Shown here piece after piece: positions 1,451-60,324 of a stretch of DNA of 64,000 bases (positions are counted from its first letter, which is position 1; each line of letters begins with the position of its first letter). The notes beneath the pieces are model-generated. The model was given only the letters and a program-made list of their open reading frames with translations. It ran no database searches and was not told the DNA's origin. A program made the position numbers and the translations under genes. Location: sequence record CP053388.1; one strand, written 5' to 3'. Origin of the DNA: Escherichia phage CMS-2020a.

Positions 1451-1465
1451 TAGGTAAGTACTTAC
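1451..1465. promoter_or_regulatory. motif B palindrome
   Basis: taggtaagtacttac. Confidence 0.45.
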
Positions 1466-2301
1466 ACATGAGCGCCGTAAATTGCCCCAGCTTTAGTCCA
1501 TGTAGGCGCGTTGCCAGTTACGGCTTTACCAGCTGCTCCGCCGTTATATTCTGTACCGTTACCTTGAGTATTACATCTTCCTCCAGCAGCACCGACATTA
1601 CCACCCGAACCGCCTGTATATGCACTAAGAGACCCCTCACCAACAGATCCTTTACCAGGAGCGGAAATAGTACCAGCAGTTGCACCGGAACTCATATGAG
1701 AGGAAGACCCACCAGCACCGAATGGGCGACCACCGCCACCACCAAATATTAGTTTACCCCTGTTACCGCCGCCACCGCCGCCGCCACCTCCAGCGATTGC
1801 ACCATTATTCGTAATACGCAAGCGTGTACCGATGCCATTATTAATTGCGTTACCACCAGCAGCACCGGCAGCGTTACTACCACCATTGCCACCGCGTCCA
1901 TAGACAGTCACACCTGCGTTGATTACAAGGCTGATATAAGAGTTGGTAAGTGAACTCGGGAAATCTAAACATGGCACGCCGCTACTGGACGACACCAGAT
2001 CCCCTGTAATGGTAACAACGACTGGCGTCGCCCCCTGGGATTTTAAATAGTTGATCAGTGTGTCTTTGTTGTAGTTATGATTCGCACCGATGCTGTAATG
2101 AATTTCCTTAGAACGACCTGCTAACTGAGACATATTCCCAGCAGCAGACAATTGCACCGCCGTTCGAGCTGCACTCATCCATCTCTGGCCTGTCACACTG
2201 ACAGCCGAAGACCCAATCCAACCGGGAACACCGACAATTGGCACATCTAATCTCCTTTTTGATGTGAATATCCTGAATTGGTGAGGGTGGCCCCTCACCA
2301 T
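1462..2301 (-). CDS. glycine-rich protein (poly-Gly tracts; candidate adhesin or tail-fibre accessory)
   Basis: 279 aa with runs such as GGGGGGGGGN and many GGxGG repeats, directly downstream of the tail fibre gene. Confidence 0.6.
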   Translation of the reverse strand: MVRGHPHQFRIFTSKRRLDVPIVGVPGWIGSSAVSVTGQRWMSAARTAVQLSAAGNMSQLAGRSKEIHYSIGANHNYNKDTLINYLKSQGATPVVVTITGDLVSSSSGVPCLDFPSSLTNSYISLVINAGVTVYGRGGNGGSNAAGAAGGNAINNGIGTRLRITNNGAIAGGGGGGGGGNRGKLIFGGGGGRPFGAGGSSSHMSSGATAGTISAPGKGSVGEGSLSAYTGGSGGNVGAAGGRCNTQGNGTEYNGGAAGKAVTGNAPTWTKAGAIYGAHV

Positions 2302-2310
2302 TCACCTTGA

Positions 2311-5300
2311 TTACATTTTTGCCTTCAGTTCGCGCACTTCCTCGCGCAGCTCTTTGACAGCCTCGACCAACATGCCGATAACGCCGTTGTAGTTAAGACG
2401 CAGACGAGGCTCTCCTGACTGATCGTTATGGTCAACCGTTACCAGTTCAGGCTGAACATTCTGGACGTCCTGAGCGATGAGGCCGCCAGACTGCTCATAC
2501 CGGTCACAGACCTGAATCTCGTACAGAACACCTTCGATCCGATCCAGCTTGTCGAGCGCTCGTTCAATCTTGCGAATATTGCGTTTGCTACGACGGTCAG
2601 AGCGGATATAAACGTCATTAAAGCTGCCATTACCGCCACAAACCCAAGTACCATCATTCTGGAGGTATGCGTTCGCATCCGTGCCGTTTGCGGTACGTGA
2701 GTTGTTGATCATGTAAAAACCAAACTGACTGTTTCCCAAGCCACCCAAGAAGAATTTGCGATCCGCGTGGTCTTGTCTCAACAACGCTTGTGCAGAGCTT
2801 GTACTTACAGCGTTCCTCCCGAAGATGACGTTCTGGTTACGCATATCTATCCACGCGCCAGAGCCGCTGTTGATGGAAAAACGGTTGGCGTAAACCCACG
2901 CACTTGACGTGATGTCACCCGTTACACTCAACGGCTTAAGGCTTTGCAGCGTGCTATTAACGAACCTAAAAACATGGGCGCTATTGGCGTAAACATCCAG
3001 AATGCCATCTCCGTTCTGTTTAAAGCCGGTGTCATTGTCACCCAGAACAATGGAATTACCGCCAAGAGCACTGGATGTACCGATGCCCAGTGCACCATTC
3101 AATTGACCTCCAGATAATGATAACGCCCCAACATCAGCAGCAGTCGGTTTAATGTGCGAACTGTAAATTACATATACAGTTCCATCTGTCAGGCCTGTTG
3201 GTTTATTCGCTGTATAAGTTGGTGATGTATGAATCGTTACGCTGGCGTTACTGGTATAATCCCACTGGATATTAACACCTGTGGCGTAATTACCTATTTC
3301 TACATAAATGTCATAGGTATCACCGGATGTATTCACCCATGCAAAATTAGTAAATCCAACCGAGGTCCGTCGCCATAATGCACCAGTAATACCTTTGGGG
3401 TTCCCATTTCCTGCACGCAGAACCAGCTCAGAGATGCCTGCTTGCTGCGGGGAGCCAACGTTAAACCCTGCGCCACCAATCAGGCTTATGTAAACCACGG
3501 AACTGGCTTGTGGCATGGTTACAGTTGCCAGCTTGAACCATCCGGCACCACCACTAAAAGACATTGTTGCTGAGTTGATCGTGCCTATAGACCTTGGAGT
3601 TAGCTCAATATTTTTAGAACCGTCAAACGACACCCCATTTATAGTTCTAGCGGTTTGTAACTTGGTCGCTGTCGCTGCATTACCGGTTGTGTTCTGGTTA
3701 CCAGCAATGTTTACACCCGGCAGGTTGATATTGGCGGAGCCATCGAATGACACGCCGCCTATTGTGCGTGCTGTTTGCAGTTTTGTTGCAGTTGCAGCAT
3801 TACCGTTCAAACTACCATTGATGCCGCCAGTAACATTGAGTCCATTACCGATCGTAACAGCACCGCTGGTATTATTAATTATAATAGGTCGCAAACCGTT
3901 CCATGAACCTAATGTGTCTCCTGATGCTGTTAGCATGAAATATGTGTTCGATCCATCATTACGGATAAAGAATCCATAGTTGCCATAGGCAATGCGCAGA
4001 CCATTCGCCGATTTTGAAATAATCTCGCCAGCAGCAGTTAATCCGCCAGTTAACGCTCCTCCAGAAAGCGATAATGCTCCTACATCAGAAGCTGTTGGTT
4101 TGTTTCTAGTGTTATAAGAACGACGCCAGCCTGGCGCGTAATCACTGCCATTGTACACATAAATAAATTCCGCATTGTTAACACCACCATGACCCGATGT
4201 TGTTGTCGTTGTAACACGAATAGTGTAGTGGCTTGTTGCCTTATTACTAAACACCTCAATCACGGAACCAGATAGATCGATCCTACCGCAACCAGTGTCG
4301 TCTATATAATTATTGTTGGCGTAAGTCCATGAGCACCGTGCGATCCAATGTTTGTTTGTAAATGCCCCCTGATTATTTAGCCAAGTTATAAATTGAGCAG
4401 TCGTAAATGCCGTTCCGTTACCACTATTTAACCATCCAGCGGCAGCGGTTGGCGCGTTTATATCAGCCGGCTGAGGCATAAATCCAGTCGTGTAAACCTG
4501 CTCCCAACCACTTTCAAAACCATAGCCATCTCTTGAGGAACGGTAGAACAGACCACCATTTTTATAGTGAGCTTTAATTTGAAGCGTACGGCAACTACCT
4601 AAACCGGTATAAAAGTTGGCAAGAATATAACTGTGGCCTGTTCTATTTACATTATAAGCACCAGATTCAGCATTCCACGGCACGCCACCATCAGCATCCG
4701 CATATGACCCTGTTGCCCTTCTTGCGAAAGCGGCAACATGCGCAGCGGTTAAAGTGATATCAGTAGAACCATCAAATGGAACACCGGATATTTTTCTTAC
4801 CGTCTGAAGTTTTGTAGCAGTTGCAGCATTACCAGTGGTGTTCTGATTACCCGTAGTGTTTACACCTGGAAGGTTAATATTTGCAGAACCGTCGAAAACA
4901 ACTCCACCGATAGATCTTGCCGTCTGCAATTTCGTGGCTGTACTTGCATTACCATTCAATGAACCAGTTAATCCACCTGTAACAGACAACGGACCTGAAA
5001 CTGTTCCTCCGGTTGTTGGCAGTGCTCCAATATCTAACGGCGTCGGTTTCTGATGTGTGCTATACATCGTATAAACAACACCATCGGTAACGCTGGAAGG
5101 CTTACTCGCTGAATATGTTGGCGATGTATAAATAGAAACTGTCGCATTTGCAGTACAATCCCAATGGATATTTACACGAGTCGCATAATTGCCAATCTCA
5201 ACGTAAATATCATATGTATCGCCGGATGTGTTGATCCAGGCGAAATTCGTTAACCCGACGGCTGTACGCTTCCACAAAGCCCCGGTAATTCCTTTGGGGT

Positions 5301-7041
5301 TTCCATTGCCTGCTCGTAGAACCAGTTCTGAAATGCCTGCCTGATGTGGGGAACCGACGTTGTAACCAGCGCCACCAATCAATGCGATGTAAACGATGGA
5401 ACTCGCTTGTGGCATGGTAACCGTAGCCAGTTTGAACCACCCAGCCCCGCCAGAGAAAGACATCGTTACTGAATTTAAAGTACCAATATCTTTCGGCGTT
5501 AATGTTATATCCGCAGTCAGTGCTTTTCCGTTAACTTTTCGGTTAGATGGCACCCTGCTATTCGCATTGTCATTGGCTGCTTTAACTGCTTTTGGCGTTG
5601 CGGCCAGCGATTCACTGGTGCTATCAACAGCACTGCTAAGTTTCACAACACCTTTAGTTGTAAGGCTTGCGTCTTCCATCGCAACTGCACCGGCAATCTC
5701 TTCAGCACGATCAGCAGCAGCTTCCGCACGGGTCGCAGCGGATTCAGCAGCAGTTTTGCTCTGAGATGCTGCCGTCGCACTGCCTGCCGCCTCTGTTGCT
5801 TTCGTGGATGCCGTCGTGGCGCTGCCCTTCGCTGCTGACGCCTGTCTGGTCGCCTCATCTTTTGAAGCAGACGCAGATGATGCCGATGACGCTGCCGAAC
5901 TGGCGGACGATGCGGCTGCCGTTTTTGAGGATTCTGCACGGGTTTCCGACGCTTTCGCGTTCGTTTCGGATGTCTTCGCTGCGGAAGCAGACCTCGCTGC
6001 TGCGCTGGCCTGTTCAGTGGCTTCGCCAGCCTTCGTTGTGGCTGTTGAAGCAGACGATGCGGCACTTTCTGCCGATTTTCCGGCGGCGGTGGCACTGGCT
6101 GAGGCCTGCCCGGCACTTGTTGACGCGGCACTGGCAGACGACGCAGCCGCTGTTTTTGAGCCTGCCGCAGCTGAGGCACTCTGTCCCGCTGCCGTTTCAG
6201 AAGACCTGGCGTTCGTCTCGGACGTTTTTGCCGCCTTCGCGGAATTGCCTGCCGCTGTTGCCGAGGAGGCTGCACTACTGGCGCTCGAGGCTGCGCTCGT
6301 TTCTGATGATTTTGCCGCCTCTTTTGAAGCCGACGCATCTCTGGCTGAGGTGGCAGCTTCTGACGCTTTCGTGGTCGCGGTGGATGCAGAAGTGGCTGCA
6401 GATTTTTGTGACGCTGCAGCATTCGTTTCAGATTTTTTCGCAGCAGTTGCACTCGCACTTGCGGCACTTTGTGAGGATGCCGCAGCGGATGCACTTTGAG
6501 ACGCTTGAGAGGCTTTTTCTCCAGCGATATTGGCGCTTTCTGCTGCTGCGGCAGCACTGGCCGCCGCCTCACGAGCTTTGTCGCCAGCAGCATCAATCGC
6601 GTCAGTGTTATTTTTATACCACTCAACGTTTTCGTTGTGCTCGTTGACGATCTGCATTAGCGGCTTAACGGTCACTTCTGTACCGTCTTCACGCTCGATT
6701 GTCACCTCATCCAGAGCAGTCAACCAACTGCGCATGGACTTGGAATCAGCCGACATACGCGACATTAGTGCTGTAAAGCGCGCGCTAAACTGTGTTAAGT
6801 CGCCTTCATAGGTCGTAATGATTCGGCACGGAACTTCAGACTGAGTTTCGCCGGTATAAGGTTCTGAGAGAACAATGTTCGTATCACTGGTTACGCGCTT
6901 GATCTCATACAGCTTATTGTCGGGGCCAATGACGATCATCCCCGGCAACACACCATTAGCTGTTACGTTCCAGGCTGTCCCTGCCCCAACCAGAGTATTG
7001 CTACCCTGTGTAAATGTGATAGTACCTTCCCTGTACCACAT
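2311..7041 (-). CDS. long tail fibre protein with Ala/Ser-rich stalk, duplicated receptor-binding-type modules and C-terminal intramolecular chaperone (S74-like) domain
   Basis: 1576 aa; repeated TIGGVxFDGSxNIxL and NAATATKLQTAR fibre repeats; two copies of the MSFSGGAGWFKLATVTMPQASS module; C-terminal SDRRSKRNI motif. Confidence 0.9.
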   Translation of the reverse strand: MWYREGTITFTQGSNTLVGAGTAWNVTANGVLPGMIVIGPDNKLYEIKRVTSDTNIVLSEPYTGETQSEVPCRIITTYEGDLTQFSARFTALMSRMSADSKSMRSWLTALDEVTIEREDGTEVTVKPLMQIVNEHNENVEWYKNNTDAIDAAGDKAREAAASAAAAAESANIAGEKASQASQSASAAASSQSAASASATAAKKSETNAAASQKSAATSASTATTKASEAATSARDASASKEAAKSSETSAASSASSAASSATAAGNSAKAAKTSETNARSSETAAGQSASAAAGSKTAAASSASAASTSAGQASASATAAGKSAESAASSASTATTKAGEATEQASAAARSASAAKTSETNAKASETRAESSKTAAASSASSAASSASSASASKDEATRQASAAKGSATTASTKATEAAGSATAASQSKTAAESAATRAEAAADRAEEIAGAVAMEDASLTTKGVVKLSSAVDSTSESLAATPKAVKAANDNANSRVPSNRKVNGKALTADITLTPKDIGTLNSVTMSFSGGAGWFKLATVTMPQASSIVYIALIGGAGYNVGSPHQAGISELVLRAGNGNPKGITGALWKRTAVGLTNFAWINTSGDTYDIYVEIGNYATRVNIHWDCTANATVSIYTSPTYSASKPSSVTDGVVYTMYSTHQKPTPLDIGALPTTGGTVSGPLSVTGGLTGSLNGNASTATKLQTARSIGGVVFDGSANINLPGVNTTGNQNTTGNAATATKLQTVRKISGVPFDGSTDITLTAAHVAAFARRATGSYADADGGVPWNAESGAYNVNRTGHSYILANFYTGLGSCRTLQIKAHYKNGGLFYRSSRDGYGFESGWEQVYTTGFMPQPADINAPTAAAGWLNSGNGTAFTTAQFITWLNNQGAFTNKHWIARCSWTYANNNYIDDTGCGRIDLSGSVIEVFSNKATSHYTIRVTTTTTSGHGGVNNAEFIYVYNGSDYAPGWRRSYNTRNKPTASDVGALSLSGGALTGGLTAAGEIISKSANGLRIAYGNYGFFIRNDGSNTYFMLTASGDTLGSWNGLRPIIINNTSGAVTIGNGLNVTGGINGSLNGNAATATKLQTARTIGGVSFDGSANINLPGVNIAGNQNTTGNAATATKLQTARTINGVSFDGSKNIELTPRSIGTINSATMSFSGGAGWFKLATVTMPQASSVVYISLIGGAGFNVGSPQQAGISELVLRAGNGNPKGITGALWRRTSVGFTNFAWVNTSGDTYDIYVEIGNYATGVNIQWDYTSNASVTIHTSPTYTANKPTGLTDGTVYVIYSSHIKPTAADVGALSLSGGQLNGALGIGTSSALGGNSIVLGDNDTGFKQNGDGILDVYANSAHVFRFVNSTLQSLKPLSVTGDITSSAWVYANRFSINSGSGAWIDMRNQNVIFGRNAVSTSSAQALLRQDHADRKFFLGGLGNSQFGFYMINNSRTANGTDANAYLQNDGTWVCGGNGSFNDVYIRSDRRSKRNIRKIERALDKLDRIEGVLYEIQVCDRYEQSGGLIAQDVQNVQPELVTVDHNDQSGEPRLRLNYNGVIGMLVEAVKELREEVRELKAKM
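3125..3840 (-). repeat. intragenic direct repeat block, copy 2 (module X2 plus fibre-repeat set 2) within tail fibre gene
   Basis: About 80-85% nucleotide identity to 4760-5470; antisense ORFs at 3515 and 5414 start with the same MVTVASLNHPAPP peptide. Confidence 0.75.
4760..5470 (-). repeat. intragenic direct repeat block, copy 1 (module X1 plus fibre-repeat set 1) within tail fibre gene
   Basis: Paralogous to 3125-3840 (offsets about 1.15 and 1.9 kb for the two sub-modules). Confidence 0.75.
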
Positions 7042-7083: not shown

Positions 7084-7104
7084 ATTAAGTAAATACTTAC
7101 CTAT
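7084..7104. promoter_or_regulatory. motif B palindrome
   Basis: attaagtaaatacttacctat between J and tail fibre genes. Confidence 0.5.
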
Positions 7105-7134
7105 TTTTACCGATATAAAATTTTTTTTCCACCA

Positions 7135-10100
7135 TCACAGACGGCCAATTCTTACTCGTAAGACGTTGTTATCGTCATAAACGTCAATCCGCTGACCATT
7201 TATAACCAATCGCCCATTGCCGCCGCTATTACCGTTGATCTCAAGCGTTCCATTTTTGCCGAACCGCCATCCAGATCTACCGCTAACAAAATTGGTAGAT
7301 TGCAGATCGCCTACTTTTGCATTGGTGATTGTGCCATCCTTGATATACGCTCCATTCATATAGGCGATACTGTTTTCGATAACAAATGGCGTTGTGATCT
7401 TCCCGTTAACAGAGTTGACCAAACCAAACCTGTCAGCCTGCACCAAAAACTGAGAAAGGCCAGTGGTGTCGATACCAAGCGCAATACCAGCAACATACTT
7501 CTGCCCTCCGCTCGTTGAAGTTTCCATTTTCAACGTCCACGCGGTTGACACTTTTTTGTTGGTATCAGCAATAGCTGTTGCCTGCTGTTGAATTGTCGCG
7601 GTATTTCCATCCACCTCTGCTTTCAGAGTATCGATTCGCCCACTCAGAGCATTATCTGCCTGCGTTCTCGCTGTCGTTTCAGTTGTTACCGCCGCGGAAA
7701 TGTTGGCTGCCGTTTGAGACTCTAAGTTTGTGATTTGAGTCGCCAATGCGGCATCTTGCTCTGTACGCGTTTTCGTTTCGGTTGCTACAGCCGCTTTAAT
7801 ATCCTCTTTGTATTGAGAGGTCAGCTTGGTGATCTGAGACGACAACGCCGAGTCAGCATCAGTTCGAGCCTGCGTTTCAACTGCAACGGCCGCACTAATA
7901 TCTTTCGCTGTCTGTGCTTTTAAACTTGAAACCTCTTTTGTTAAAGCGGTATCACCATCTGCACGAGCCGTTGTTTCTCTGGCAAGAGACGCCTCGAGAT
8001 CATTAGCTTTTGCTGTAAGAGACGTAATCTGGGTAGACAATGCACTATCGGCATCAGTCCTTGCTTTTGTCTCTACAGCAACCGCTGCGGCAATATCAGT
8101 TCCGGTTTGTGCTCGCAGGCTGTTAATTTCTCGTGAGAGCGCCTGGTCAGCACTTGCCCTGGCCTCCTGCTCCTGAGTGATGGCAGCGGATATATCACCG
8201 TCAACCTTTGACTGAAGCTGGTTTATTTGTTTGGCTAACGCAGAGTCCCCGCTTGCTCGAGCCTCCTGCTCACTACGTATTGCAGCAGAAATATCATCAT
8301 CAACCTTTGCCTGAAGTTGGGTGATCTGGCTTGCCAGAGCCGAATCTTCCGTTGCTCGGGCTTCTTGCTCTTCCTTAATAGCTGCGACGATATCGTTGCT
8401 TACTTTCGACTCAAGCTGAGTGATCTGTGTCGTCAGAGCTTCATCGGCAGATGTACGAGCCTCCTGCTCTGTACTAATCGCCGCGCTGATATCTCCTTCA
8501 AACTTAGATTGCAGCTGAGTGACACGCTTTGCCAACGCTTCATCGCCATCGGCACGAGCGGTGGACTCTTCCAGAATACTGGCCTTAATGTCTTCGCCAA
8601 TTTCTACGCGAATTTCCTCAACCTTCGTGGCTATTGCAGACATATCATCAGCAAAGGTTTTCTGTGTTGTTGCGATCTTCGCGTTATTGACCATCTGCTT
8701 GTGCTGGTCTTCATCTTGACGAAGAGCCAGGTCAATATTTGTTTTGGCTAACGCCTCAATGTTCGTAGTCAGTTCTGCACTGGCACGATCGACCTCTGCA
8801 ACCGTCTTTTTCATTTCTTCAACGGCAGCGGAGCTTTCCTCTACCGTTGACTGCAACACTTCCAGTTGTTTAGCGTTTGCAGCATCGCCTTCAACACGAG
8901 CCTCGCTTTCCTTAGCAATAAGAGCCGCCGCTTCATCTCTTGCAGCCTTTATTGCCTCGACTGTATTAGCGAGAGCTTTATCGTGTTCAGATACGGTGTT
9001 TTCGATTTCAACAATTGCAGCATCAGTAGCATCAATTTTTTCAAACGCTTCATTGACCTTGTCAATCGTTGCCGAAACCTCACCTTTAAGCTCGGTTTGT
9101 GCGTTCTCCAAAGCATCGCTACGCTCGTTGAATTTTATTTCAAAATCCGCGAGGTTATCGCTGAACTGCTTATCTAATTCAGCTATATCTTCCTTAACGT
9201 CGTTTACCGCCCCCTCCAAAGATTCGACGCTCTGGTTGATATGCTCATTTAACTCGTCAACTGCTTCTTGAGAGGCTTTGCTGTTGATGTCCTCAAGCAG
9301 AGCCTGACCAAGCTCGGAAGATGTAATTTTGCCAGTCAGGAACGACAGTACATCGCGAGTTGTCGCCTCTGTACCCAAGTTTGAGTTCGGAGGACTTAAC
9401 ATACCTCGCTTGTTCGATGCTCGAACCCAGTAATACCACGTTTCGCTATCCCCAAGACCAGCATGTGTAAAGGTGGTGCTTGCAGACTCTGCGATCAGTT
9501 TCGCCGTATCCAGATTGTTGGTCTGGGATGCGTAAACATTAATGTGATCAAGGTCTACCGAATCTGGATTAACCCAATTCAGTATCACATTACGATAGTC
9601 TCCAACGGCCGTTAATGACGTTGGGGAATCCGGCGGTGTCATTGTGCCCAACACCTGATAAACGGTACTGATAATCTCTGTTTTTTTACCGTTGAATGAA
9701 ACCGCATACAGCTGGAAGTCGTAGCGTCCATTCTCCGCGACATTAACGATTTCGTATTGCTCTTCGGTTACACGCGCCGATTGCCAGTTCGATACATTGT
9801 TTTCATCAGAACGTCGCCAACTGATCCAATACTCTGGAGATTTCCCTTCCCATGTTGCAGTCAGTTTTACTGACAGGTTGCCAGGGCTTGAGAGATAAGT
9901 CCCTTCGGTGATTTGCAAATTAGACGGCTTGGAGTAAGTCGGGTCCAATACCGTCGTATTCTGCGGGATAAGCGTTGCACCATTGTCGATTGCCTCATAT
10001 TTAGACGGATTGTTCTCAACAGCGGTGATGTCAAAGCTACCCGGCGTTTCCCCCTGCGCGATGTTAACGATGCGAACGCGCATAGGTTCGAGATCTGGTT

Positions 10101-11868
10101 CTGTAATTGTCCAGACACCGTTCAAAACAGGCGTTTCCGCTGACGACAGGGCTTTTGAAAACGTAACCTTTGTTATGTTTTCGCCAGTTTCAAGAACATC
10201 GCGTTCAACGATTTTGCCTTCCTGATTCAGTATTCGAATAAAGCAGCCGCCTTTGGCTAACGACACCGGCGCATCGAGTGTGACGCTGTTTTTGGTAAAC
10301 GCCACAATTCGACCTGAGTTACGTTTGCCTGCGCGATATTTGTTCTGAATCAGAACGGTTTCACCAGGCATCAGAAATGACGCGTCTAAGCCGGCAGTAA
10401 ATGTAATTACATCCGACTCCATTCTGGCGGTATATAAAAGCCACAAACCAACTCGGTGAGCCTGCCCTCGGCTTGTACAGCCAAATGCTACGACTTCTGT
10501 CTTACGCTCACCATAACGGCGCATTGCGTCCTGATCTTCAACGTACTCGATGTTTTGCTTATAACCGTCCTCCTTGTTGTTGTAGGTTACGAGCGCAACG
10601 GATGGGCGATCTTTACGCGCAGAACCTTTATAGGTAAACAATCCATCTTTGACGTTAGAGTTGGTAAACATCATTACCGGATCTGATGGGCTATCCTGCA
10701 TGATGTTAACCATGCCACCAGCCCAAAACACCATACCGCGGAATGCACCGGCAATATCCTGAATTAATCGGTATGCGTCCTGTCGACTGGTGATCTGCGT
10801 ATTGATTGCAAAGCGTTTCTCTTTACCACCAAAGCCATCATCAACCTCTTCGTCACAATATCGACCGATCTGGTATAGCTGGCCGAGGTCAATCATAGAT
10901 TCCGACACATACTGACCAAGGCCATATCGAGCATTGGTAAGCAAATCAAAGAGAATCCACGCGGGGTTTGAAGAAGACAACAGCTTAAAAGTGCCATCCC
11001 ATACACCATCATAAGTGTTGCTGGCCTCGTTGTAGTTTGACGGCACGCGAATTTTTAATCCACGTACCAAATACGAACGAGATGGCATGGTGCTACCAAA
11101 CTGCTCAGAATTAACCTTCAGACCCACCAGCACAGAGTTTGGGTAGTTCATCGGTGTATCTACAATCTCACCTATTGAGTCCACCCATGTATCGTTATAG
11201 AGATACTGGCTGCTGTTATCATCGGTAATACGGACTACACGAACCTTGTACGCGCGTCCAGGCTTAGGCAGCTTCAGCTCATAGCTACGGTAATAAACAC
11301 CTGTCTTCTTTGCTGTTAGCTTAATGCCAACGCTTTTTTCACCTTCTGCGACCACATCTACAAATGTTGAGTCGCCATTTGCTATCTGGAACTTGTACTC
11401 AACGGTTGTACCGTTCGTGTCACCAGTTTTTTTATCTATGCTTCGCAAAGAAGGAAACTTCATGATGACACGAACCCGATCAGCTTCATCGTTATCGATT
11501 GAAACCGTTACATAATGTGTTTTTTTTAACTGGATATTGACGGATTTAGGCGTTTCAACGAAATCAAAGCCAGACATTGGAGTCTGGTCTTGCGAACCGT
11601 CGCGAAAATCCCATGTGATTCCGCTGAAGTTGGAGGAACCGTCTTCATTTACAATCGGCAGATCGTCGACAAAAATAGATCTTGCGCCATTTACCAAGCC
11701 GCCAATTACACCTTCCCCAAGAAGATCGAGGATAGCGGCCATTGCACGAGAATTTACGGTATCGTCGGCTTCAACCGGTGTACGGCTAGAGCTTTTGCTG
11801 CTTTTTTTACCACCCGCACCTGCAATAAACAGCGGTAACTTTTTCTTCTTGAACTGTTCCATGTTCAA
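7135..11868 (-). CDS. tail tip / host specificity protein (lambda J-like) with inserted coiled-coil repeat stalk
   Basis: 1577 aa; N-terminal region alignable to lambda J; about 10 tandem ~37-aa repeats of the ITQLxSKVxxDIxAAIxxEQEARxxxDxAL type. Confidence 0.9.
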   Translation of the reverse strand: MNMEQFKKKKLPLFIAGAGGKKSSKSSSRTPVEADDTVNSRAMAAILDLLGEGVIGGLVNGARSIFVDDLPIVNEDGSSNFSGITWDFRDGSQDQTPMSGFDFVETPKSVNIQLKKTHYVTVSIDNDEADRVRVIMKFPSLRSIDKKTGDTNGTTVEYKFQIANGDSTFVDVVAEGEKSVGIKLTAKKTGVYYRSYELKLPKPGRAYKVRVVRITDDNSSQYLYNDTWVDSIGEIVDTPMNYPNSVLVGLKVNSEQFGSTMPSRSYLVRGLKIRVPSNYNEASNTYDGVWDGTFKLLSSSNPAWILFDLLTNARYGLGQYVSESMIDLGQLYQIGRYCDEEVDDGFGGKEKRFAINTQITSRQDAYRLIQDIAGAFRGMVFWAGGMVNIMQDSPSDPVMMFTNSNVKDGLFTYKGSARKDRPSVALVTYNNKEDGYKQNIEYVEDQDAMRRYGERKTEVVAFGCTSRGQAHRVGLWLLYTARMESDVITFTAGLDASFLMPGETVLIQNKYRAGKRNSGRIVAFTKNSVTLDAPVSLAKGGCFIRILNQEGKIVERDVLETGENITKVTFSKALSSAETPVLNGVWTITEPDLEPMRVRIVNIAQGETPGSFDITAVENNPSKYEAIDNGATLIPQNTTVLDPTYSKPSNLQITEGTYLSSPGNLSVKLTATWEGKSPEYWISWRRSDENNVSNWQSARVTEEQYEIVNVAENGRYDFQLYAVSFNGKKTEIISTVYQVLGTMTPPDSPTSLTAVGDYRNVILNWVNPDSVDLDHINVYASQTNNLDTAKLIAESASTTFTHAGLGDSETWYYWVRASNKRGMLSPPNSNLGTEATTRDVLSFLTGKITSSELGQALLEDINSKASQEAVDELNEHINQSVESLEGAVNDVKEDIAELDKQFSDNLADFEIKFNERSDALENAQTELKGEVSATIDKVNEAFEKIDATDAAIVEIENTVSEHDKALANTVEAIKAARDEAAALIAKESEARVEGDAANAKQLEVLQSTVEESSAAVEEMKKTVAEVDRASAELTTNIEALAKTNIDLALRQDEDQHKQMVNNAKIATTQKTFADDMSAIATKVEEIRVEIGEDIKASILEESTARADGDEALAKRVTQLQSKFEGDISAAISTEQEARTSADEALTTQITQLESKVSNDIVAAIKEEQEARATEDSALASQITQLQAKVDDDISAAIRSEQEARASGDSALAKQINQLQSKVDGDISAAITQEQEARASADQALSREINSLRAQTGTDIAAAVAVETKARTDADSALSTQITSLTAKANDLEASLARETTARADGDTALTKEVSSLKAQTAKDISAAVAVETQARTDADSALSSQITKLTSQYKEDIKAAVATETKTRTEQDAALATQITNLESQTAANISAAVTTETTARTQADNALSGRIDTLKAEVDGNTATIQQQATAIADTNKKVSTAWTLKMETSTSGGQKYVAGIALGIDTTGLSQFLVQADRFGLVNSVNGKITTPFVIENSIAYMNGAYIKDGTITNAKVGDLQSTNFVSGRSGWRFGKNGTLEINGNSGGNGRLVINGQRIDVYDDNNVLRVRIGRL
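7670..8750 (-). repeat. tandem ~111-bp coding repeats (coiled-coil heptad array) inside J-like gene
   Basis: Repeating gcctcctgctc... units visible in DNA; protein repeats EQEARA(S/T)xDxAL. Confidence 0.7.
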
Positions 11869-12474: not shown

Positions 12475-13286
12475 GTCTCATCTCCCTTGAGCAAGTCTCT
12501 GTGACGCAAGTGATGCGTCGTATGTTTCTGATACATTCCGCCGTAATAAGCACGACAACTAAGGCGGTCGATCTGGTGATGAAGAATCATTCCATCGCCG
12601 ATATAAACCGCGCAGTGGTCAGGCATTTTCCCGTATTGGATAAAGAAGATGTCCCCACGTTGAGGCTCTGTTCCGGGAGCAAGACGCACCAATCCCTCGT
12701 TACGGTAGTTCTGATCGAGAATGTCGTTATCGCCGGTGTACCACGATGGAATATGCAGGTGTGCGTTCGGGTTTAGTTCGACGTTAAACTCACGCTTCAA
12801 ATAGTCCCGACACAACATCCAGCAATCGAATACGCCAAATACATACGGTCTGCCCAGGTATGGCATTTCGAAACCATCAGGTGTGATCACATTCATCTCG
12901 CTAAAATGGAAAGGGGCATCTCCCTCAACATTCTTGCGAATAGCCAGAATCATCCACGGAACTTCCGTCGCTTCGCAGCCTGCACGATCGGCATCAGATG
13001 CTTCTGCTGATTCATCAGTATGTGAATGCCAGATTGCGATAACATCACCCGCATCCTCTGCCGCCATAATGTCGTCAACGTGCATTACAAAAGTGTTCTG
13101 CGGGTTCTCCGAAACATTCCGCGCTTCCATAAAGCGATATTTGTCGCCATTAGTTCTAACCAGAAAGCCACACGCTTCATTAGGGTAGCGATTTATGGCG
13201 CAGAGATAGATTTGCTGCATAACGTCAGAGCCAAGCTCAGGGATTGCTTTATTACCCATACCGCGTAGCTCCAATAAATCCGCCAA
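12462..13286 (-). CDS. tail assembly protein (lambda K-like; MPN/JAMM plus NlpC/P60 domains)
   Basis: HSHTDESAEASDAD JAMM-like motif and Cys/His NlpC-P60 region; position between L and I. Confidence 0.85.
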   Translation of the reverse strand: MADLLELRGMGNKAIPELGSDVMQQIYLCAINRYPNEACGFLVRTNGDKYRFMEARNVSENPQNTFVMHVDDIMAAEDAGDVIAIWHSHTDESAEASDADRAGCEATEVPWMILAIRKNVEGDAPFHFSEMNVITPDGFEMPYLGRPYVFGVFDCWMLCRDYLKREFNVELNPNAHLHIPSWYTGDNDILDQNYRNEGLVRLAPGTEPQRGDIFFIQYGKMPDHCAVYIGDGMILHHQIDRLSCRAYYGGMYQKHTTHHLRHRDLLKGDETCLS

Positions 13287-13983
13287 AATGGATCACACCG
13301 TCGGCAAAATAATTCCGACGCGCATTACAGGCGTCATAACGTTTTGTGCAGTAATCCGCACCAGACATAGACGTCTGCTGGTTATTTTTGTCGAAATATG
13401 GACCGGTATAGCCGCATTCTGGCCCTCGGTATTTCCACGGGCAGGTGTTTTTAATGATCTGACGATACGGCAGTTGCACCCCCATCAAATCGAACACACT
13501 AGACAATTCAAACTCGACAACCTGATGAGTTTCGAGAGTTTTCTGTTCGATAAACCACATTTCATCCGGGAAATGTTGGTTTGGATCTGCTGTTGGGTTG
13601 CCGTCTTTAAAATTAACGGCATCGAGGAAGCGAGCCAGCGTCATCTTGCGAATAATGCGGCAGCCAACAAGATCGTCGTTTGCCTGAACTTCCGCAGAGA
13701 CAGTTCCGGCAAAGTTCGATACCTGAATTTTTGGACGTGGCAACGTTCCCTGGCCAGTTTTGTCAAAGCCTGATGCTTTGATTGGCCACGGCTCGTATGT
13801 CACTCCTTGCCAGACGACCGGTTGCATCAGTTCGTTTGTTCCGGCGTGGAAGAATAACTTCCCCCCTGAAGTTGTGTTCGACATATCCAGTACGAACAAC
13901 TCAATGAGTGCAGAGGGAGATAAGCTCTGAATATCAGCTTTAATTCCCATTGTTTCATCCTTGAAATAAGTAGGCGCTAACAT
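13252..13983 (-). CDS. minor tail protein (lambda L-like)
   Basis: 243 aa with C-terminal Cys cluster; gene order M-L-K-I-J. Confidence 0.8.
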   Translation of the reverse strand: MLAPTYFKDETMGIKADIQSLSPSALIELFVLDMSNTTSGGKLFFHAGTNELMQPVVWQGVTYEPWPIKASGFDKTGQGTLPRPKIQVSNFAGTVSAEVQANDDLVGCRIIRKMTLARFLDAVNFKDGNPTADPNQHFPDEMWFIEQKTLETHQVVEFELSSVFDLMGVQLPYRQIIKNTCPWKYRGPECGYTGPYFDKNNQQTSMSGADYCTKRYDACNARRNYFADGVIHFGGFIGATRYG

Positions 13984-14000: not shown

Positions 14001-14025
14001 GATAGTAAATTAGTACTTACTTATC
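14001..14025. promoter_or_regulatory. motif B palindrome
   Basis: gatagtaaattagtacttacttatc between M and L genes. Confidence 0.5.
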
Positions 14026-51995: not shown

Positions 51996-52376
51996 CTAAT
52001 TGCCGGATAAAATGGGGTGAGGTGCTTGCCAGTAGGCTCCACCGTTCCATGTGAACCCCATGCGAATAAGAGTGTTTATTGCGGCTTTGGTAGCCTCCGA
52101 TTCGACACTGGCTTTTCGAAACTCTTGAACCTCTTTCGCCAACTTGTATGTAATTGTGCAGGGGACGATTGCAGCCCAGCCTTTCTCATGACTGTTAATG
52201 ACCATCTGGATGTGACCATCCAGAATAGGTTGATTAGGCATGTTATTGAAAATGTCTGCCTGTTTTTGAATGTGAAGAAAAAGCCTTGCCAGCTCCATTT
52301 GCTCACTCCGAGACAAGGGATTATCAAGAGGGCTTTTTGCAAAAGCGGCTACACGCTGTGCGTCAATGCCAAACAT
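51996..52376 (-). CDS. hypothetical protein
   Basis: 126-aa ORF. Confidence 0.45.
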   Translation of the reverse strand: MFGIDAQRVAAFAKSPLDNPLSRSEQMELARLFLHIQKQADIFNNMPNQPILDGHIQMVINSHEKGWAAIVPCTITYKLAKEVQEFRKASVESEATKAAINTLIRMGFTWNGGAYWQAPHPILSGN

Positions 52377-53080
52377 CAGCGCACCTCACCATCTTTATGG
52401 CTGGAGTTAACTTCCGCCATTAAATGTCTGACGTAATCGACAAGAGAGCCACCTGGTGGAATCTGGCATTCCTCGACTAACTGGAAGTAGATATCCGCAG
52501 CATTACGTGTATTGCTACCCGCACATATTCTTTCTTCCCGAAGTGCATGAAGCTCGTTGATCAAACGGTCACACTCTCCGTTACGCTGATCCACAACGGC
52601 CTCAAGCTCTGCGACGCGTTCACCTGGCGTCTTACCTTCTTTGCGTTGGATGGTAACGACGAAATCGCCAATTTCCGGGACGTTGTAATCCAGCTCAAGG
52701 TAGTTTTTGGCACCGCTGCGGACGAACTCACCCGCGAACATGGTAGCGAACATCGCAGAGGCCACTTCGCCGTTGAAAAGTGACTCCAGATCTAACGGAG
52801 TACCGGCAGCAAGAGCCTCTTTTGCTGTATCCATTGCATCCATGAACCGATCAAACTCATTGGCGCGCTTTTCCAGGTTTTTCCATTGCTCGCTCCAACG
52901 TTTGGCAACGAAGTCTATGAATGTTTTCGCGGATTCATCAAAATTCCCCTCAAACTTAACGATGCCTTTATCAATAATGATCTGGCCTACCGCATCCTCT
53001 GCATAACCTTTCAATGTAAACTTGAAAGGAAAATCGGAATGGCCTGTGACGTTAAAATGCTCTAACTGGAGGTTGCTCAT
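52376..53080 (-). CDS. hypothetical protein
   Basis: 234-aa ORF. Confidence 0.5.
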   Translation of the reverse strand: MSNLQLEHFNVTGHSDFPFKFTLKGYAEDAVGQIIIDKGIVKFEGNFDESAKTFIDFVAKRWSEQWKNLEKRANEFDRFMDAMDTAKEALAAGTPLDLESLFNGEVASAMFATMFAGEFVRSGAKNYLELDYNVPEIGDFVVTIQRKEGKTPGERVAELEAVVDQRNGECDRLINELHALREERICAGSNTRNAADIYFQLVEECQIPPGGSLVDYVRHLMAEVNSSHKDGEVR

Positions 53081-53121
53081 GTGTTTTCTCTTATCGTTTA
53101 GTTACTACATTCTTACATAAA

Positions 53122-53142
53122 CTAAGTAAGTATTTACCTATC
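53122..53142. promoter_or_regulatory. motif B palindrome
   Basis: ctaagtaagtatttacctatc at the MTase gene stop. Confidence 0.5.
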
Positions 53143-54826
53143 ATTTAACGCGTTTGAAAACGTATACGCTGACTGTGATCCCTGTGTCTTCAAACTCGTT
53201 GGTAAACGACTTCCCTCTGGCATAAACGTAATTATCCATCGTCATCCAGTCCAGTATTGGCGCAGTGCCCGGCAATACTGCTACAAGACGCCCGCCGACT
53301 TTCAGATGCCCCAGCGCAGCCAGCGTGTGCTCTCTATGACGACCAAGCGAGTACGGCGGGTTCATAACGATTTTGTCGAACTGATAACCTACGTTGTCCT
53401 CAGACCACTTTATGAAGTCGCAGCAAATCGTGTTCGTATACCCTTTTCCGCGCAGGATATCAGCGAAGAGAGGTGCGATTTCTATGCAGGTAACATCTTC
53501 CAGATCGGCGTTGATATAGGCCAGAAGATCCCCACGTCCGGCTTGAGGCTCCAGCAGCTTCTCACCAGACTTCAATTCAGTGGCTCTGGCAACGTACTCA
53601 GCAATCAAGCGTGGGGTAGGGTAGAACTGGTGTGATTTTGTATCCGGTATTAATCCGGTAGCCACAATCGTATTTAGCGTATGGCCGATCTCATACGGGA
53701 ACTGCCAGTGTTTTTTCTCCTGCACGCCGCCAATGAAGCTCAGTGTGCGCTCAAGCTCTTCCACCTGCGACTTCTGGAGAGCTGAATCAGAGAAGTACCA
53801 TACGCCTTTGTCTTTGCTCAATCGCCCGTCACGAAGCGCAGTGCGAACCGGCACGGAGATCGTCTTCTGGATTAACCCGAACTGCTTTGGTGCCCGTGTT
53901 TTTGGCGCAGTTCGGCATGGCGCGGGGATTGCAGCAGGCATACTGTAAGCCAGCACCTCATTCAACTTCCAGGCCACGTCAGGATGTATTTCAAAGTGAA
54001 CGTTGCCGTTCTTGAACATCTTCACGCGCATCAGATTTCCATCGACGTTCATCCAGTCACCGGTCTGGCAGTCGTTTGCTCGATACGCAGCTGATAGCAC
54101 CTCAGCAGTGCGGTTGATGGTAATAAATTCTTTGTGCGCGAAGAAATGAAGCAAGACACGCAGATCGTCGATGTAGTCCTCTTTGCGATAGTTCACGCTA
54201 ACGCTGTCCCGCCAGAAATCAGAAATGCAGTCAGCGATTATCAGACGCTCGCTGAAACCGTTTGTCTTATTTGTCTTGTGCGCAGGACTCAGCGCCTTAA
54301 ACAAGCCATACACGCGCTCAGAGAGATATTTGTGCCTGTCATTCAGCAAATTAAGCATCGTGGGTATGACCGTTTCTGCTTTGAACTCCGGTACACCAAC
54401 GAACTCTTTAACCTTCATCTGGTAGCCGGTTCTGTCAGTTTTGATGACTTCCTGTTTGCCCTCTATAAACTGCTCGCGCCACTCATCTCGACGGGAAGCT
54501 GGCATGATCAGCAAAACGTTAGTCATGTCCGTGACCTTCCTCCAGTACTCGGCCCAAATATTCTGTTTCACCCATTCCAGATCGACTTTATCCAACCAAC
54601 CTCGATTTAAACGCGAGCGATCTTCATCTGGTCGATGGTTTAGTCTCAGCAGGCGATTAATCATGTTGTGGCGTTCGTCGCCATAAACGAAGTCGTGTAC
54701 CTGATACATGAAGGCGATCTCTTTCTCGCACTCGGCCACAATTTCGTGGATGACGTTCATTTCCTGCCGATAGTCGATAGCAGTGTTTGAGTTGGCATCG
54801 TCGATGATGGAAAGGGCTGTATTCAT
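53141..54826 (-). CDS. DNA methyltransferase (NPPY class) with ~380-aa N-terminal domain of unknown function
   Basis: C-terminal FYPTP, EPQAGRGDL (SAM-binding) and IVMNPPY motifs. Confidence 0.7.
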   Translation of the reverse strand: MNTALSIIDDANSNTAIDYRQEMNVIHEIVAECEKEIAFMYQVHDFVYGDERHNMINRLLRLNHRPDEDRSRLNRGWLDKVDLEWVKQNIWAEYWRKVTDMTNVLLIMPASRRDEWREQFIEGKQEVIKTDRTGYQMKVKEFVGVPEFKAETVIPTMLNLLNDRHKYLSERVYGLFKALSPAHKTNKTNGFSERLIIADCISDFWRDSVSVNYRKEDYIDDLRVLLHFFAHKEFITINRTAEVLSAAYRANDCQTGDWMNVDGNLMRVKMFKNGNVHFEIHPDVAWKLNEVLAYSMPAAIPAPCRTAPKTRAPKQFGLIQKTISVPVRTALRDGRLSKDKGVWYFSDSALQKSQVEELERTLSFIGGVQEKKHWQFPYEIGHTLNTIVATGLIPDTKSHQFYPTPRLIAEYVARATELKSGEKLLEPQAGRGDLLAYINADLEDVTCIEIAPLFADILRGKGYTNTICCDFIKWSEDNVGYQFDKIVMNPPYSLGRHREHTLAALGHLKVGGRLVAVLPGTAPILDWMTMDNYVYARGKSFTNEFEDTGITVSVYVFKRVK

Positions 54827-58089: not shown

Positions 58090-58110
58090 GATAGGTAAAC
58101 ACTTACTTAC
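58090..58110. promoter_or_regulatory. motif B palindrome
   Basis: gataggtaaacacttacttac at RNase H stop. Confidence 0.5.
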
Positions 58111-58700
58111 TATTTATTATAAACAAAACCAATATCTTTCTTGTGAGGCATATCTGCTGCTGAAAAAGCTGCGATCTTCGCGAGTCGATCACATATTTCA
58201 TTTTCACGATGCCCGGCGTGACCTTTAACCCACTTCCAGCGAACATTATGTCGACTTGCGGCCTCATCCAGACGCTTCCACAGATCAACATTCTTTACCG
58301 GTTTTTTGTCAGAAGTCATCCATCCATTGCGTTTCCACCATTTCATCCACTGTGTCATGCCGTTTTTCAGATACTGGCTATCAGAGTGCAAAATAACGTT
58401 GCATGGATATTTCAAACGCTCCAGCCCGATAAGTGCCCCCATCATCTCCATGCGGTTATTGGTGGTGCTATGAAAACCATCTGAGAACTCGCGTTCCTCT
58501 CCACGATACTGAAGAACGATACCGTAACCGCCCGGGCCACCCGGATTTTTAAGGCAAGAGCCATCACTGAAGATTTTCACGGTTTTAAGCTGGGGATTGA
58601 ACTCTACGACAGGCGTTGTGGGATTGGTGCGGGGAGAATTTTTGTTTTTGGCTTTTTTGCGAGTTTTCGCTTGCGATCGGGCTGGTGTCTTCGTCGTCAT
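58110..58700 (-). CDS. ribonuclease HI
   Basis: [41 protein letters not shown] motifs; start MTTKTPARS with AGGAG RBS. Confidence 0.85.
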
Positions 58701-59283
58701 ATAAACTCCTGAATCAAGCGCCGCGCCGATTTTTCCTCGCGCGTGCGCACACGCGTGCGTGTTAATAATTATTAAAATAAACAAATTACTTCCCAGAACA
58801 GGTTTTTATAAACCTGAACTGAACGAACGAAGTGAGTGAAGTTCACCTCGAACGAAGTGAGAGGTTGTCTTTTCAGGTAATACTCTCCCAGGGAGGTGAG
58901 TATAAAAATCTCTCACCAACCTGGTCGTTTCATAACCTGAAAAGTTATGGTCTAAGTCTACTGCCAGCTTAGACTTGGGAAGTTATGGATGACAGCACCC
59001 CAGAACCGAGATCTTCCCACACTTTATGAAGGGGAGTACTGGATTCAACCTCTCGAAACACCCCAGACTCGACAATCATAAAGTGACCCTTGTCTCTGCT
59101 CACTTTGGTTCCCCCTTCCCCGACACCTAAACGGCACCAGTTCTACGCTGGTAGTGAGCTTTTTTTAAACCTGACGCCAGTGACGCTTACCCCCACCCAT
59201 CAGGTCGAGTCTCCAGTCTACGACTGGAAACTATCAGATCTTAGCACTTACAATTCACTTTATGAATAGTTTGTACTTATCTA

Positions 59284-59538
59284 TCATTGTGATTGATTAT
59301 TTTCTCTACCATGTAGTTGAACATTCAAGGCAAACACCTCATTGATCAACTCACCTAAAAGCTGTTCAACAAGTTCGCGATGCTCGCCAAGATGCAAGCA
59401 CTTAATTGCCCATTCGTACAAGTTGAAAGCCTGCTCACGATCTTTCATCATTTCACGAGCCTGGGCCAGAAAATCGCTCTCTACGAGCGCAACGACATTA
59501 GTCGGGTATGACATGTTGGTTTCCTTAAAGTGGTTCAT
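59284..59538 (-). CDS. hypothetical protein
   Basis: 84-aa ORF. Confidence 0.45.
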   Translation of the reverse strand: MNHFKETNMSYPTNVVALVESDFLAQAREMMKDREQAFNLYEWAIKCLHLGEHRELVEQLLGELINEVFALNVQLHGRENNQSQ

Positions 59539-59620: not shown

Positions 59621-59677
59621 GCCTGCTTCCGTATATTAATAATTAATATGTAGTTATTTATATATACAGAAGCAGGC
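59621..59677. repeat. 55-bp near-palindrome, copy 2
   Basis: gcctgcttccgtatat ... atatacagaagcaggc. Confidence 0.8.
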
Positions 59678-59699
59678 TAATTACAGACGCCAGAACAAA

Positions 59700-60293
59700 C
59701 TAAGCAGCCTTCTTTGATGGTCTTTTTTTCCTGATCACATTCGCAGGATCATACCCTCCCAGACTTTTCATGACGTCCAAAGGGATCTTGCTTATAGAGT
59801 GCCCAGCGTCCTGACAGAATCCTCGAAAAACAACGAGCATACTGCCACCTGGGTTGATGTTTACTTCTACCTGACCCAGATTTACGTCAGGCTCGACAAA
59901 CGCTACGCGGCCACCAGACAGAATAATCGTCTCATTCGCACACTCTGTTGCACGCTCATACCACTTTGTATCTAGGGATTGAGGAATTAGCATCACTGTT
60001 GTAACTCCACGAGCCTGCTCACGTATAGCCGCATCAATCCAGGGGGAGATTTTGGAGTAGGGTGGATTGAGGAAGGCAATTGTACCTGGCTGTCCCCATT
60101 CAGATTTCAAAGCATCACGCTCAACGCCTATGAAATTAGGCAGCTTTGCATTGTCCTTGTTGCAGGCAACGTCAACATCAAATGTCACTCCAAGATAACG
60201 TTGAATGGCAGAAAACAGCCAGTCAGGTGTTCTCCAGAGGTCACGAAGAGAGTTGTCGCGCTTTCGCTGTTTGATTTTTTCGGCTGCAATCAT
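59700..60293 (-). CDS. phage-type DNA N6-adenine methyltransferase (Dam family)
   Basis: WRTPDWLF, DVDVAC, FLNPPY motifs. Confidence 0.7.
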   Translation of the reverse strand: MIAAEKIKQRKRDNSLRDLWRTPDWLFSAIQRYLGVTFDVDVACNKDNAKLPNFIGVERDALKSEWGQPGTIAFLNPPYSKISPWIDAAIREQARGVTTVMLIPQSLDTKWYERATECANETIILSGGRVAFVEPDVNLGQVEVNINPGGSMLVVFRGFCQDAGHSISKIPLDVMKSLGGYDPANVIRKKRPSKKAA

Positions 60294-60303
60294 CTTCTTT
60301 CTC

Positions 60304-60324
60304 GATAGGTAAGTATATACCTAT
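60304..60324. promoter_or_regulatory. motif B palindrome
   Basis: gataggtaagtatatacctat. Confidence 0.5.

Follow-up and report, generated by a model that had tools for sequence, protein, structure and literature searches.

A dispersed palindrome as a probable transcription-control site in the lytic gene clusters of SSU5-like phage-plasmids

The palindrome and its copies

The sequence analyzed here is a 64,000-nucleotide stretch of Escherichia phage CMS-2020a (CP053388.1), referred to below as the window, in which one palindrome recurs in the short gaps between genes. The window belongs to an SSU5-like Escherichia coli phage-plasmid. Its identity to Escherichia phage Cyrano (pLF82) is 98.6%, and Salmonella phage SSU5 and several Klebsiella phage-plasmids of ~110 kb share ~80% identity with it. 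Phage-plasmids of the SSU5 supergroup are common; their hosts are Klebsiella, E. coli, Enterobacter, Salmonella, Yersinia and Acinetobacter, and resistance genes are carried by some of them (PMC9600943). Gene roles were assigned via the Cyrano annotation. One minus-strand block extends from ~33 kb down to position 1 and leads from a ParB-like operon to the terminase, head, tail and lysis genes; a second, from 64 to 40 kb, holds nucleotide-metabolism, methylase and accessory genes; and a short plus-strand block at 33 to 39 kb encodes the UvsW helicase and regulators.

The symmetrized consensus of the repeated motif is GATAGGTAAGT/ACTTACCTATC (the slash marks the dyad), a 22-bp palindrome with fixed spacing and even symmetry, centered between ...AAGT and ACTT.... 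A preliminary description of this DNA had listed the palindrome at 12 positions and written it with an "-n-" spacer. The motif is present at 12 of the 12, but the spacer is not needed, as the fixed register also covers the sites listed at 14001, 20505 and 40075, where the 2 to 4 seemingly extra central bases are degenerate inner positions. A variable-spacer hairpin model was rejected, since the even-symmetry register accounts for all sites. Scoring was done with two 9-nucleotide (nt) arms against TAGGTAAGT, with zero spacer and 300 Markov shuffles as the null. At least 14 of the 18 core positions matched at 11 window positions, against 0.11 expected (shuffle maximum, 2), and at least 16 of 18 at 5 positions, against none in the shuffles. 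A family-wide pattern, TARGTMA-N4-TKACYTA with at most 2 mismatches, gave 14 window matches against 1.55 expected, and the exact 18-mer was found in 31 stretches of IMG/VR, all SSU5-like by BLAST. The palindrome thus exceeds the AT-rich background. As described earlier, 11 of the 12 sites lie in gaps between genes and 1 lies inside the 3' end of the portal gene. The copies and the features directly associated with them are the following.

1449-1470: palindrome abutting the end of open reading frame (ORF) 1462-2301 and upstream of ORF 1064-1399 (both minus strand)
7084-7105: palindrome between host-specificity gene J (7135-11868) and a tail-fiber gene (2311-7041), followed by a GC hairpin without a T-run
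14004-14025: palindrome between minor tail genes M (14033-14368) and L (13252-13983)
20506-20527: palindrome upstream of the major tail protein gene (19710-20492, minus strand), overlapping the promoter-like TTGAAT-18-TATACT
24059-24075: GC hairpin/terminator with a T-run, 14-18 nt from the dyad center of the palindrome at 24081-24102, which it follows
24081-24102: palindrome 18 nt past the major-capsid stop codon
25995-26023, minus strand: predicted sigma-70 promoter TTGAAA-17-TATTAT (10 of 12 consensus positions) inside the portal 3' end
25997-26018: palindrome forming the spacer of that promoter, upstream of the scaffold/protease and capsid genes
27504-27525: palindrome filling the gap from the TerL stop codon to the portal ribosome-binding site (RBS); essentially every family member has a copy there
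33024-33045: palindrome between the UvsW helicase gene (33090-34649, plus strand) and the divergent ParB-like operon (start ~33007, minus strand), in a gap of 83 bp, with a TAnnnT hexamer facing UvsW
40081-40102: palindrome directly 3' of an intrinsic terminator, overlapping the predicted sigma-70 promoter TTGTAA-17-TAGAAT (40099-40071, minus strand), the -10 of which is kept in SSU5 and pJN2-26
53121-53142: palindrome between a DUF4942 gene (53141-54826) and an Ead/Ea22-like gene (52376-53080)
58090-58111: palindrome just past an RNase H-like gene (58110-58784, minus strand), with TATCAT as its downstream arm
~59264-59285: degenerate 13th copy (position weight matrix [PWM] score 15.2), the SSU5 orthologue of which, AATCGGTAAGTACTTACCATTT, matches better
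60304-60325: palindrome, GATAGGTAAGTATATACCTATT on the plus strand, 22 nt upstream of an adenine-methyltransferase gene (59700-60293, minus strand)

The placement reported for the site at 40075 was also borne out, as the palindrome follows GCCCCGCC...GGGGCTTTTTT and precedes the RBS. A copy occupies the divergent gap between the UvsW and ParB-like genes in every lineage examined. Beside this copy, at 33046-33055, TATTATAATA gives TATAAT on both strands, so the divergent UvsW and ParB promoters may share one overlapping -10 region.

The complete Cyrano genome holds ~24 copies. Twenty-one of the 22 clear ones are intergenic in a genome that is 86.5% coding and 13.5% non-coding (binomial P ~1e-17), and, measured from the dyad center, the preceding stop codon is usually 6-24 nt upstream and the following start 12-170 nt downstream. 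Copies precede structural and lysis genes (portal, scaffold/capsid, decoration, major tail, tail L, tail-fiber and holin) as well as the SSB, SbcD, NrdA, ThyX, Dam and primase-region genes, and none were found in the toxin-antitoxin, ParA, RepA, integrase, tRNA and accessory regions of Cyrano. Because replication, recombination and nucleotide-metabolism genes are also preceded by copies, the palindrome is not specific to late genes.

Conservation across lineages and recognition as DNA

The comparison with related phages revealed that the consensus is kept at orthologous gaps while the flanks diverge. SSU5 and Klebsiella pJN2-26 carry the same consensus at these gaps (the palindrome at 60304-60325, for instance, has orthologues at Cyrano 77445, SSU5 77660 and pJN2-26 14630), and a comparison of 22 Cyrano/SSU5 site pairs gave 88% identity in the 18-bp core and 59% in the flanks. 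Orthologous conservation reaches further on the downstream side, to +13/+17. In the Acinetobacter baumannii phage-plasmid pA52-1, whose TerL is 59% identical, ~27 to 32 copies of TATTAGTAAGC/GCTTACTAATA occupy syntenic positions.

Wider relatives were gathered by a TerL-profile scan of species-representative genomes, which returned contigs of ~100 to 118 kb across many proteobacteria, including Morganella, Xenorhabdus, Photobacterium, Piscirickettsiaceae, Chitinibacter, Massilia, Halomonas, Roseospira, Faunimonas, Magnetospirillum, Methylocystis, Phyllobacterium, Paracoccus and others. All contigs have in common a gene block that runs in order through UvsW, ParB, a ParB-nuclease, an ABC ATPase, an ATPase-acetyltransferase, a small protein, TerS, TerL and portal. 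The same gaps hold a palindrome that is particular to each lineage, e.g., TAAGTCA-N4-TGACTTA, TAAATCAAT/ATTGATTTA or TATAGTAAGT/GCTTACTGTA, and these variants, found at syntenic gaps in Acinetobacter and at least 17 proteobacterial lineages, keep one dyad register. Aligned on the dyad, all of them contain the half-site TA(A/G)GT(A/C)A at -9..-3, and many lineages have a free, non-palindromic center of 4 nt. The generic half-site pattern occurs at 158 sites in 26 loci, compared with 14 after shuffling. Half-site and syntenic positions are retained in relatives from alpha-, beta- and gamma-proteobacteria, which suggests that the regulatory system arose together with the family.

The order of capsid stop codon, palindrome and GC hairpin/terminator (14-18 nt from the dyad) is likewise kept in nearly all lineages. 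The sequences of this post-capsid hairpin have fully diverged among the enteric, beta- and alpha-proteobacterial relatives; since its position is kept nonetheless, a functional coupling of palindrome and hairpin is suggested, and a transcript may start at the hairpin while upstream transcripts terminate there.

Some relatives differ in their genomic setting. A family member lies at 1.89-1.91 Mb inside the 4.2-Mb chromosome of Halomonas sulfidaeris (AP019514.1) and another on a 450-kb Paraburkholderia contig, and both may be integrated versions of the phage-plasmid family. Contigs from metagenome-assembled genomes labeled Bacillota, Saccharibacteria and Fimivivens encode TerL proteins 58-97% identical to those of enteric/proteobacterial elements and most likely reflect mis-binning.

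The two arms of the palindrome behave as separately constrained half-sites. Arm complementarity equals the expectation for independent arms, both in Cyrano (166 versus 171±5) and in Acinetobacter (227 versus 229.5±4), and mismatches have no sense-strand bias (64 G-U versus 59 A-C). As RNA, the copies would form stems of 7-8 bp, and their folding energies range from -1.3 to -7.3 kcal/mol; 2 of the 12 window sites fold no better than shuffles, and a search of the whole window against Rfam 15 gave no match at the gathering threshold. The lack of covariation between the arms, the missing G-U bias, the free central 4 nt of many lineages and the weakness of the hairpins point to a dimeric, sequence-specific DNA-binding protein, of which independently constrained half-sites combined with a lineage-wide concerted consensus are the signature. 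Consequently, the earlier suggestion of a regulator-binding site punctuating long operons was strengthened by the half-sites, the orthologous conservation and the concerted lineage variants, and the palindrome is very probably a protein-bound transcription-control site on DNA.

Promoter register and candidate binding proteins

The register of the palindrome relative to promoter hexamers was measured over 99 sites in 17 lineages. Where hexamers are recognizable, the canonical arrangement is TTGAnA, one base, the palindrome and nnnT, so that the palindrome constitutes the 17-bp spacer and the -10 TAnnnT begins with the last TA of the palindrome. A -35 with at least 4 of 6 matches at the exact spacing was found at 17 sites on the gene strand versus 5 on the opposite strand, TTG at -16..-14 at 18 versus 2, and the -35 together with TAnnnT at 16 versus 1. 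The best promoter-like site within 20-40 kb of the window is TTGAAA-17-TATTAT at 26023-25995, with the palindrome as spacer, and the same architecture recurs in the Yersinia, Morganella, Xenorhabdus and Photobacterium relatives; the window copies at 40081-40102 and 20506-20527 likewise overlap predicted promoters. TAnnnT stands at +8 in 8 of the 12 window copies, and among the 24 Cyrano copies it is there in 14 on the gene strand and in 9 on the opposite one. The flanks also have an orientation: the Acinetobacter arms are TATAAT-like 10 times downstream and once upstream, and the enteric elements have TATCAT in the downstream flank and TATTTT in the upstream one.

In Massilia, Piscirickettsiaceae and Magnetospirillum, TerS is preceded by a second geometry, in which a -35 TTGACA lies over the downstream arm (at +7..+12 in Massilia) and the -10 at +30. 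Apart from a minor class at +29..+31 (12 sites versus 1), no -10 at a fixed distance outside the palindrome was found in the sites measured. The place of the putative operator relative to the hexamers thus varies, from the spacer to the -35 (Massilia) to a position between TTGTAA and TAGAAT (at 40091). The proposal that the motif is a promoter therefore holds in part, as 16 of the 99 family sites form the 17-bp spacer of a gene-oriented sigma-70 promoter, with 1 on the opposite strand. In the window, however, a single site (25997-26018) has a strong -35, and a restriction to late or middle genes is absent.

Two genes of the window emerged as candidates for the protein that would bind the palindrome.

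29605-29871, minus strand: candidate regulator, 88-amino-acid (aa) winged-helix protein, last gene before TerS
32327-33007, minus strand: candidate regulator, ParB-like protein, first gene of the operon headed by the palindrome at 33024-33045

The 88-aa gene is directly upstream of TerS in 26 of 26 family loci by hidden Markov model search. The AlphaFold2 (AF2) model of its product is a winged helix with a predicted local distance difference test (pLDDT) score of 81, for which the top Foldseek matches are MarR-family proteins, AF1382 and RTP, and Pfam gives weak LexA_DNA_bind and MarR_2 similarity. A search for co-variation between recognition helix and half-site yielded no clear pattern. The ParB-like protein consists of a ParB_N domain of the CTP-binding type, with a GGEHRWRAA motif and matches to Spo0J, ParB and Noc (E 1e-9 to 1e-5), an acidic linker and, at the C terminus, a highly conserved module, "TH..MRFKV...LTNAGDAL", resembling a strand-helix-helix segment. 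No helix-turn-helix (HTH) was recognized between the N-domain and the C terminus, where the AF2 model (pLDDT 38) is uninformative. Both proteins are universally conserved in the operon headed by one palindrome copy, and either may be the binder.

The FljA-like protein, the HTH repressor on the integrase side and the sigma-like protein of Acinetobacter were excluded because they are not conserved in all motif-bearing lineages. The repressor beside the integrase in Cyrano is absent from SSU5. A phage sigma factor was considered and discarded, as no counterpart of the Acinetobacter protein was found in the enteric elements and the palindrome is not a sigma-type promoter; this divergent sigma-70-like protein (Sigma70_r2, E 0.0026) is encoded at 18432-19097 of pA52-1, between a MoxR/CobS-like gene and dnaE. 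The FljA-like protein, proposed as an RNA-level binder, is not conserved in SSU5, pJN2-26 or Acinetobacter. It is a 200-aa protein (35348-35950, plus strand) of the FljA/"repressor of phase-1 flagellin" type (Pfam Flag1_repress, E 2.5e-84) with a weak Hfq-like match at its C terminus. SSU5 and pJN2-26 do have a related regulator of 173 aa in conserved form, and the copy in the window may be a moron silencing host flagellin.

Possible modes of action and known systems

Our proposal builds on direct observations, namely the motif itself, its enrichment, its conservation, two half-sites that are independent of each other and a defined register with the promoter hexamers; protein binding, the identity of the binder and a negative effect are what we infer from them. 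We favor, tentatively, the interpretation that the palindrome is an operator placed in internal promoters for a global phage regulator that acts negatively. Two subunits of one phage-encoded DNA-binding protein would read the core TA(A/G)GT(A/C)A in an AAGT-N8-ACTT geometry, and the copies would serve as internal transcription-control points of the lytic gene clusters. Since the palindrome sits between -35 and -10, the bound dimer would lie in the promoter spacer and exclude the host sigma-70 RNA polymerase, and copies without promoter hexamers could be roadblocks or auxiliary sites. The ~24 copies would then form one regulon under a single regulator, which would either silence the genes for replication, recombination, structure and lysis while the 108-kb element persists as a plasmid or set the timing of their expression, much like the C1 operators in P1 and the stoperators in mycobacteriophage L5. 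A repressor is more likely than an activator because near-consensus promoters, such as the one before scaffold/capsid, have to be kept off by a temperate element, because repressor operators typically vary, as these sites do, in where they lie with respect to the hexamers, because the regulon spans early-type and late-type lytic genes, and because the plasmid-maintenance and lysogeny modules have no copies.

Several observations weigh against a repressor operator. A good -35 is present in 1 of the 12 window copies and TAnnnT at +8 is absent in 4 of the 12, so most copies are not demonstrable promoters. The 10:1 drift toward TATAAT in Acinetobacter fits promoter function and is compatible with both repression and activation. 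Immunity repressors normally diversify, and a half-site kept from alpha- to gamma-proteobacteria is unusual for them. As for the candidate genes, both are located beside late genes and not in an obvious lysogeny module, and the recognition helix of the 88-aa candidate varies among lineages with the same half-site.

In phage P1, 11 late promoters carry a 9-bp inverted repeat (PMC10695390), and an alternative that we regard as possible but unlikely is that the copies are activator-dependent promoters of the P1 Lpa type. These promoters would lack a -35, with the downstream arm as the -10 and the palindrome at -30..-10 bound by an activator that recruits or remodels the host RNA polymerase, and would be off by default in the lysogen. 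P1 and the element here are both enterobacterial phage-plasmids with a dozen or more dispersed promoters or putative promoters, mostly without a -35 (present here in 1 of 12 window copies), in which an AAGT/ACTT repeat precedes the -10 or a candidate -10: the P1 late boxes, extracted from NC_005856 for comparison, read AAGTnACTT-N4-TAnnnT, and here AAGT/ACTT is followed 3 nt later by TATCAT or TACTAT. The orientation bias of the flanks, the downstream extension of orthologous conservation to +13/+17 and the GC hairpins that begin at +14..+18, near the would-be transcript start, also fit an activator, as do the conservation of the motif over long evolutionary distances, which is typical of the core machinery for lytic transcription, and the position of the 88-aa winged-helix gene just before the terminase genes, where lpa stands in P1. 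However, the P1 box is 9 bp long, has a central base and is centered at -21/-22 from the start, whereas the dyad here, in a palindrome of 18-22 bp, has no central base and lies at ~-19.5 relative to the +8 hexamer, ~1.5 bp nearer the -10. No Lpa homologue (Pfam PF25716) was found in the element (best tblastn E=0.46 against the window and Cyrano; hhalign probability 0.1% against the winged-helix family; Pfam BPP1_LPA in no scanned protein). The Lpa promoters are confined to late operons, whereas the copies here also precede early-type genes for replication, recombination and nucleotide metabolism and thus do not form a late regulon. Furthermore, several copies are 12-28 nt from the next start codon, so near that the RBS would be missing from a transcript beginning at ~+20, a full consensus promoter at some copies makes an activator unnecessary, and the palindrome is not at a fixed position relative to the hexamers.

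It is less probable still that the copies are loading sites for the ParB-like protein, comparable to those of KorB, Noc or N15 SopB, from which a CTP-binding ParB_N protein would spread or slide and silence, compact or position the DNA, with secondary effects on transcription. KorB-OB of RK2, Noc-NBS and N15 SopB are instances of ParB-family proteins with dispersed palindromic sites, and such sites (parS, NBS, KorB OB) are even-symmetry palindromes dispersed over the replicon, some of them intragenic. The copies here are comparable in being palindromes dispersed at variable distances from promoters, and the domain matches of the ParB-like protein, the presence of its gene directly downstream of a copy in every family locus and its C-terminal "TH..MRFKV...NAG.AL" segment, which is among its most conserved parts and parallels the conserved half-site, agree with such a role. 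In contrast to those systems, the protein has no recognizable central HTH and its C terminus is modeled at low confidence, and the sites are almost all intergenic and in precise register with the -35/-10 hexamers, neither of which is expected of centromere-like sites. Partition has a ParA-based locus of its own in the element. By analogy, the ParB_N protein, alone or with the 88-aa protein as partner, might conceivably be a KorB-like, CTP-dependent clamp silencing or timing the ~100-kb genome from ~24 dispersed sites within promoter spacers, although we consider this improbable. If true, the clamp system would be ancient and would extend over alpha-, beta- and gamma-proteobacterial phage-plasmids, among them the phage-related backbone that they have in common with Yersinia pestis pMT1-type and Salmonella Typhi pHCM2-type plasmids.

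The least plausible explanation, which we regard as very improbable, is an RNA element, i.e., an mRNA hairpin that is either a substrate of RNase III or a different nuclease or the target of an RNA-binding protein (the FljA-like one, for instance), which would control the stability or translation of the flanking cistrons: the copies are intercistronic and often beside an RBS, some out-fold shuffles (z down to -3.8), and the window encodes a Flag1_repress-family protein, relatives of which are reported to block fliC mRNA translation (PMC2652032), but the stems are short and weak without compensatory covariation, G-U versus A-C asymmetry or an Rfam family, the copy at 33024-33045 lies in a divergent promoter gap from which both transcripts run away, and SSU5, pJN2-26 and the Acinetobacter relative have the motif but lack the FljA-like gene. 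Likewise, the RNase III-type processing hairpin proposed in the preliminary description is not supported; an extended double-stranded RNA stem of the T7 R-site type, of about two helical turns and with compensatory changes, is not what the copies are predicted to form.

Among other known systems, the stoperators of cluster A mycobacteriophages are short sequences present ~20-30 times in intergenic gaps and in promoter operators, through which one repressor silences the prophage, according to the account in PMC9283540. The palindrome resembles the L5 gp71 stoperators in its many short-intergenic copies across lytic operons and in the promoter-embedded subset. The L5 sites are, however, asymmetric, 13-14 bp long, oriented with transcription and bound by a monomer, whereas the symmetric 22-bp palindrome implies a dimer; no gp71 homologue is evident here, and the host is Gram-negative and the element a plasmid-prophage. 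The C1 operators of P1 are also spread in number over a plasmid-prophage of ~100 kb and control separate lytic operons, but they are asymmetric 17-bp sites placed over differing sigma-70 promoters, mostly at operon starts, and not in late intercistronic gaps. The LexA SOS box, CTGT-N8-ACAG, shares the arrangement of 4-bp cores 8 bp apart and an operator between or over the -35 and -10, although the half-site here is A(A/G)GT / AC(C/T)T and not CTGT. The winged-helix candidate, with its weak LexA_DNA_bind and MarR_2 similarity, recalls LexA and MarR themselves; in contrast to them, it is an 88-aa DNA-binding module without an S24 peptidase or the MarR dimerization helices.

The kind of feature, a dispersed regulatory motif in a phage genome, is therefore known from the P1 C1 operators, the Lpa boxes and the L5 stoperators, but the palindrome belongs to none of these families, as it lacks at least one defining feature of each. 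Distinctive here are the symmetric 22-bp form, the placement in promoter spacers, the proposed regulon of all lytic modules and the conservation across three proteobacterial classes. A full-text literature search (SSU5, pHCM2, phage-plasmid promoters and palindromes, and sequence strings) retrieved no description of it; one 2026 bioRxiv preprint on SSU5-type elements was outside its coverage.

A second repeat family is found at 29520-29575 (minus strand, in the gap between the 88-aa gene and TerS), at ~59630-59680, and at Cyrano 31188 and 78108. Its members are inverted repeats of ~55 nt with an AT-rich palindromic loop and a GC clamp, CCTGCTTCTGTATATA...TATATAC(A/G)GAAGCAGG; PWM matches at 29548/29555 and 59651 are part of these repeats and are not copies of the 22-bp motif. 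As a T-run follows two Cyrano copies, these repeats are probably strong, perhaps bidirectional, terminators. The loop of the repeat at 29548 contains AATAAGT-T-ACTTATT, which is identical to a P1 late "-22 box" (AAGTTACTT).

For the biology of the SSU5 supergroup, the palindrome represents a testable map of transcription-control points in these phage-plasmids. One 22-mer and two candidate genes provide a concrete route to their master regulator, and the palindrome is also a sequence signature for recognizing such elements and annotating their promoters.

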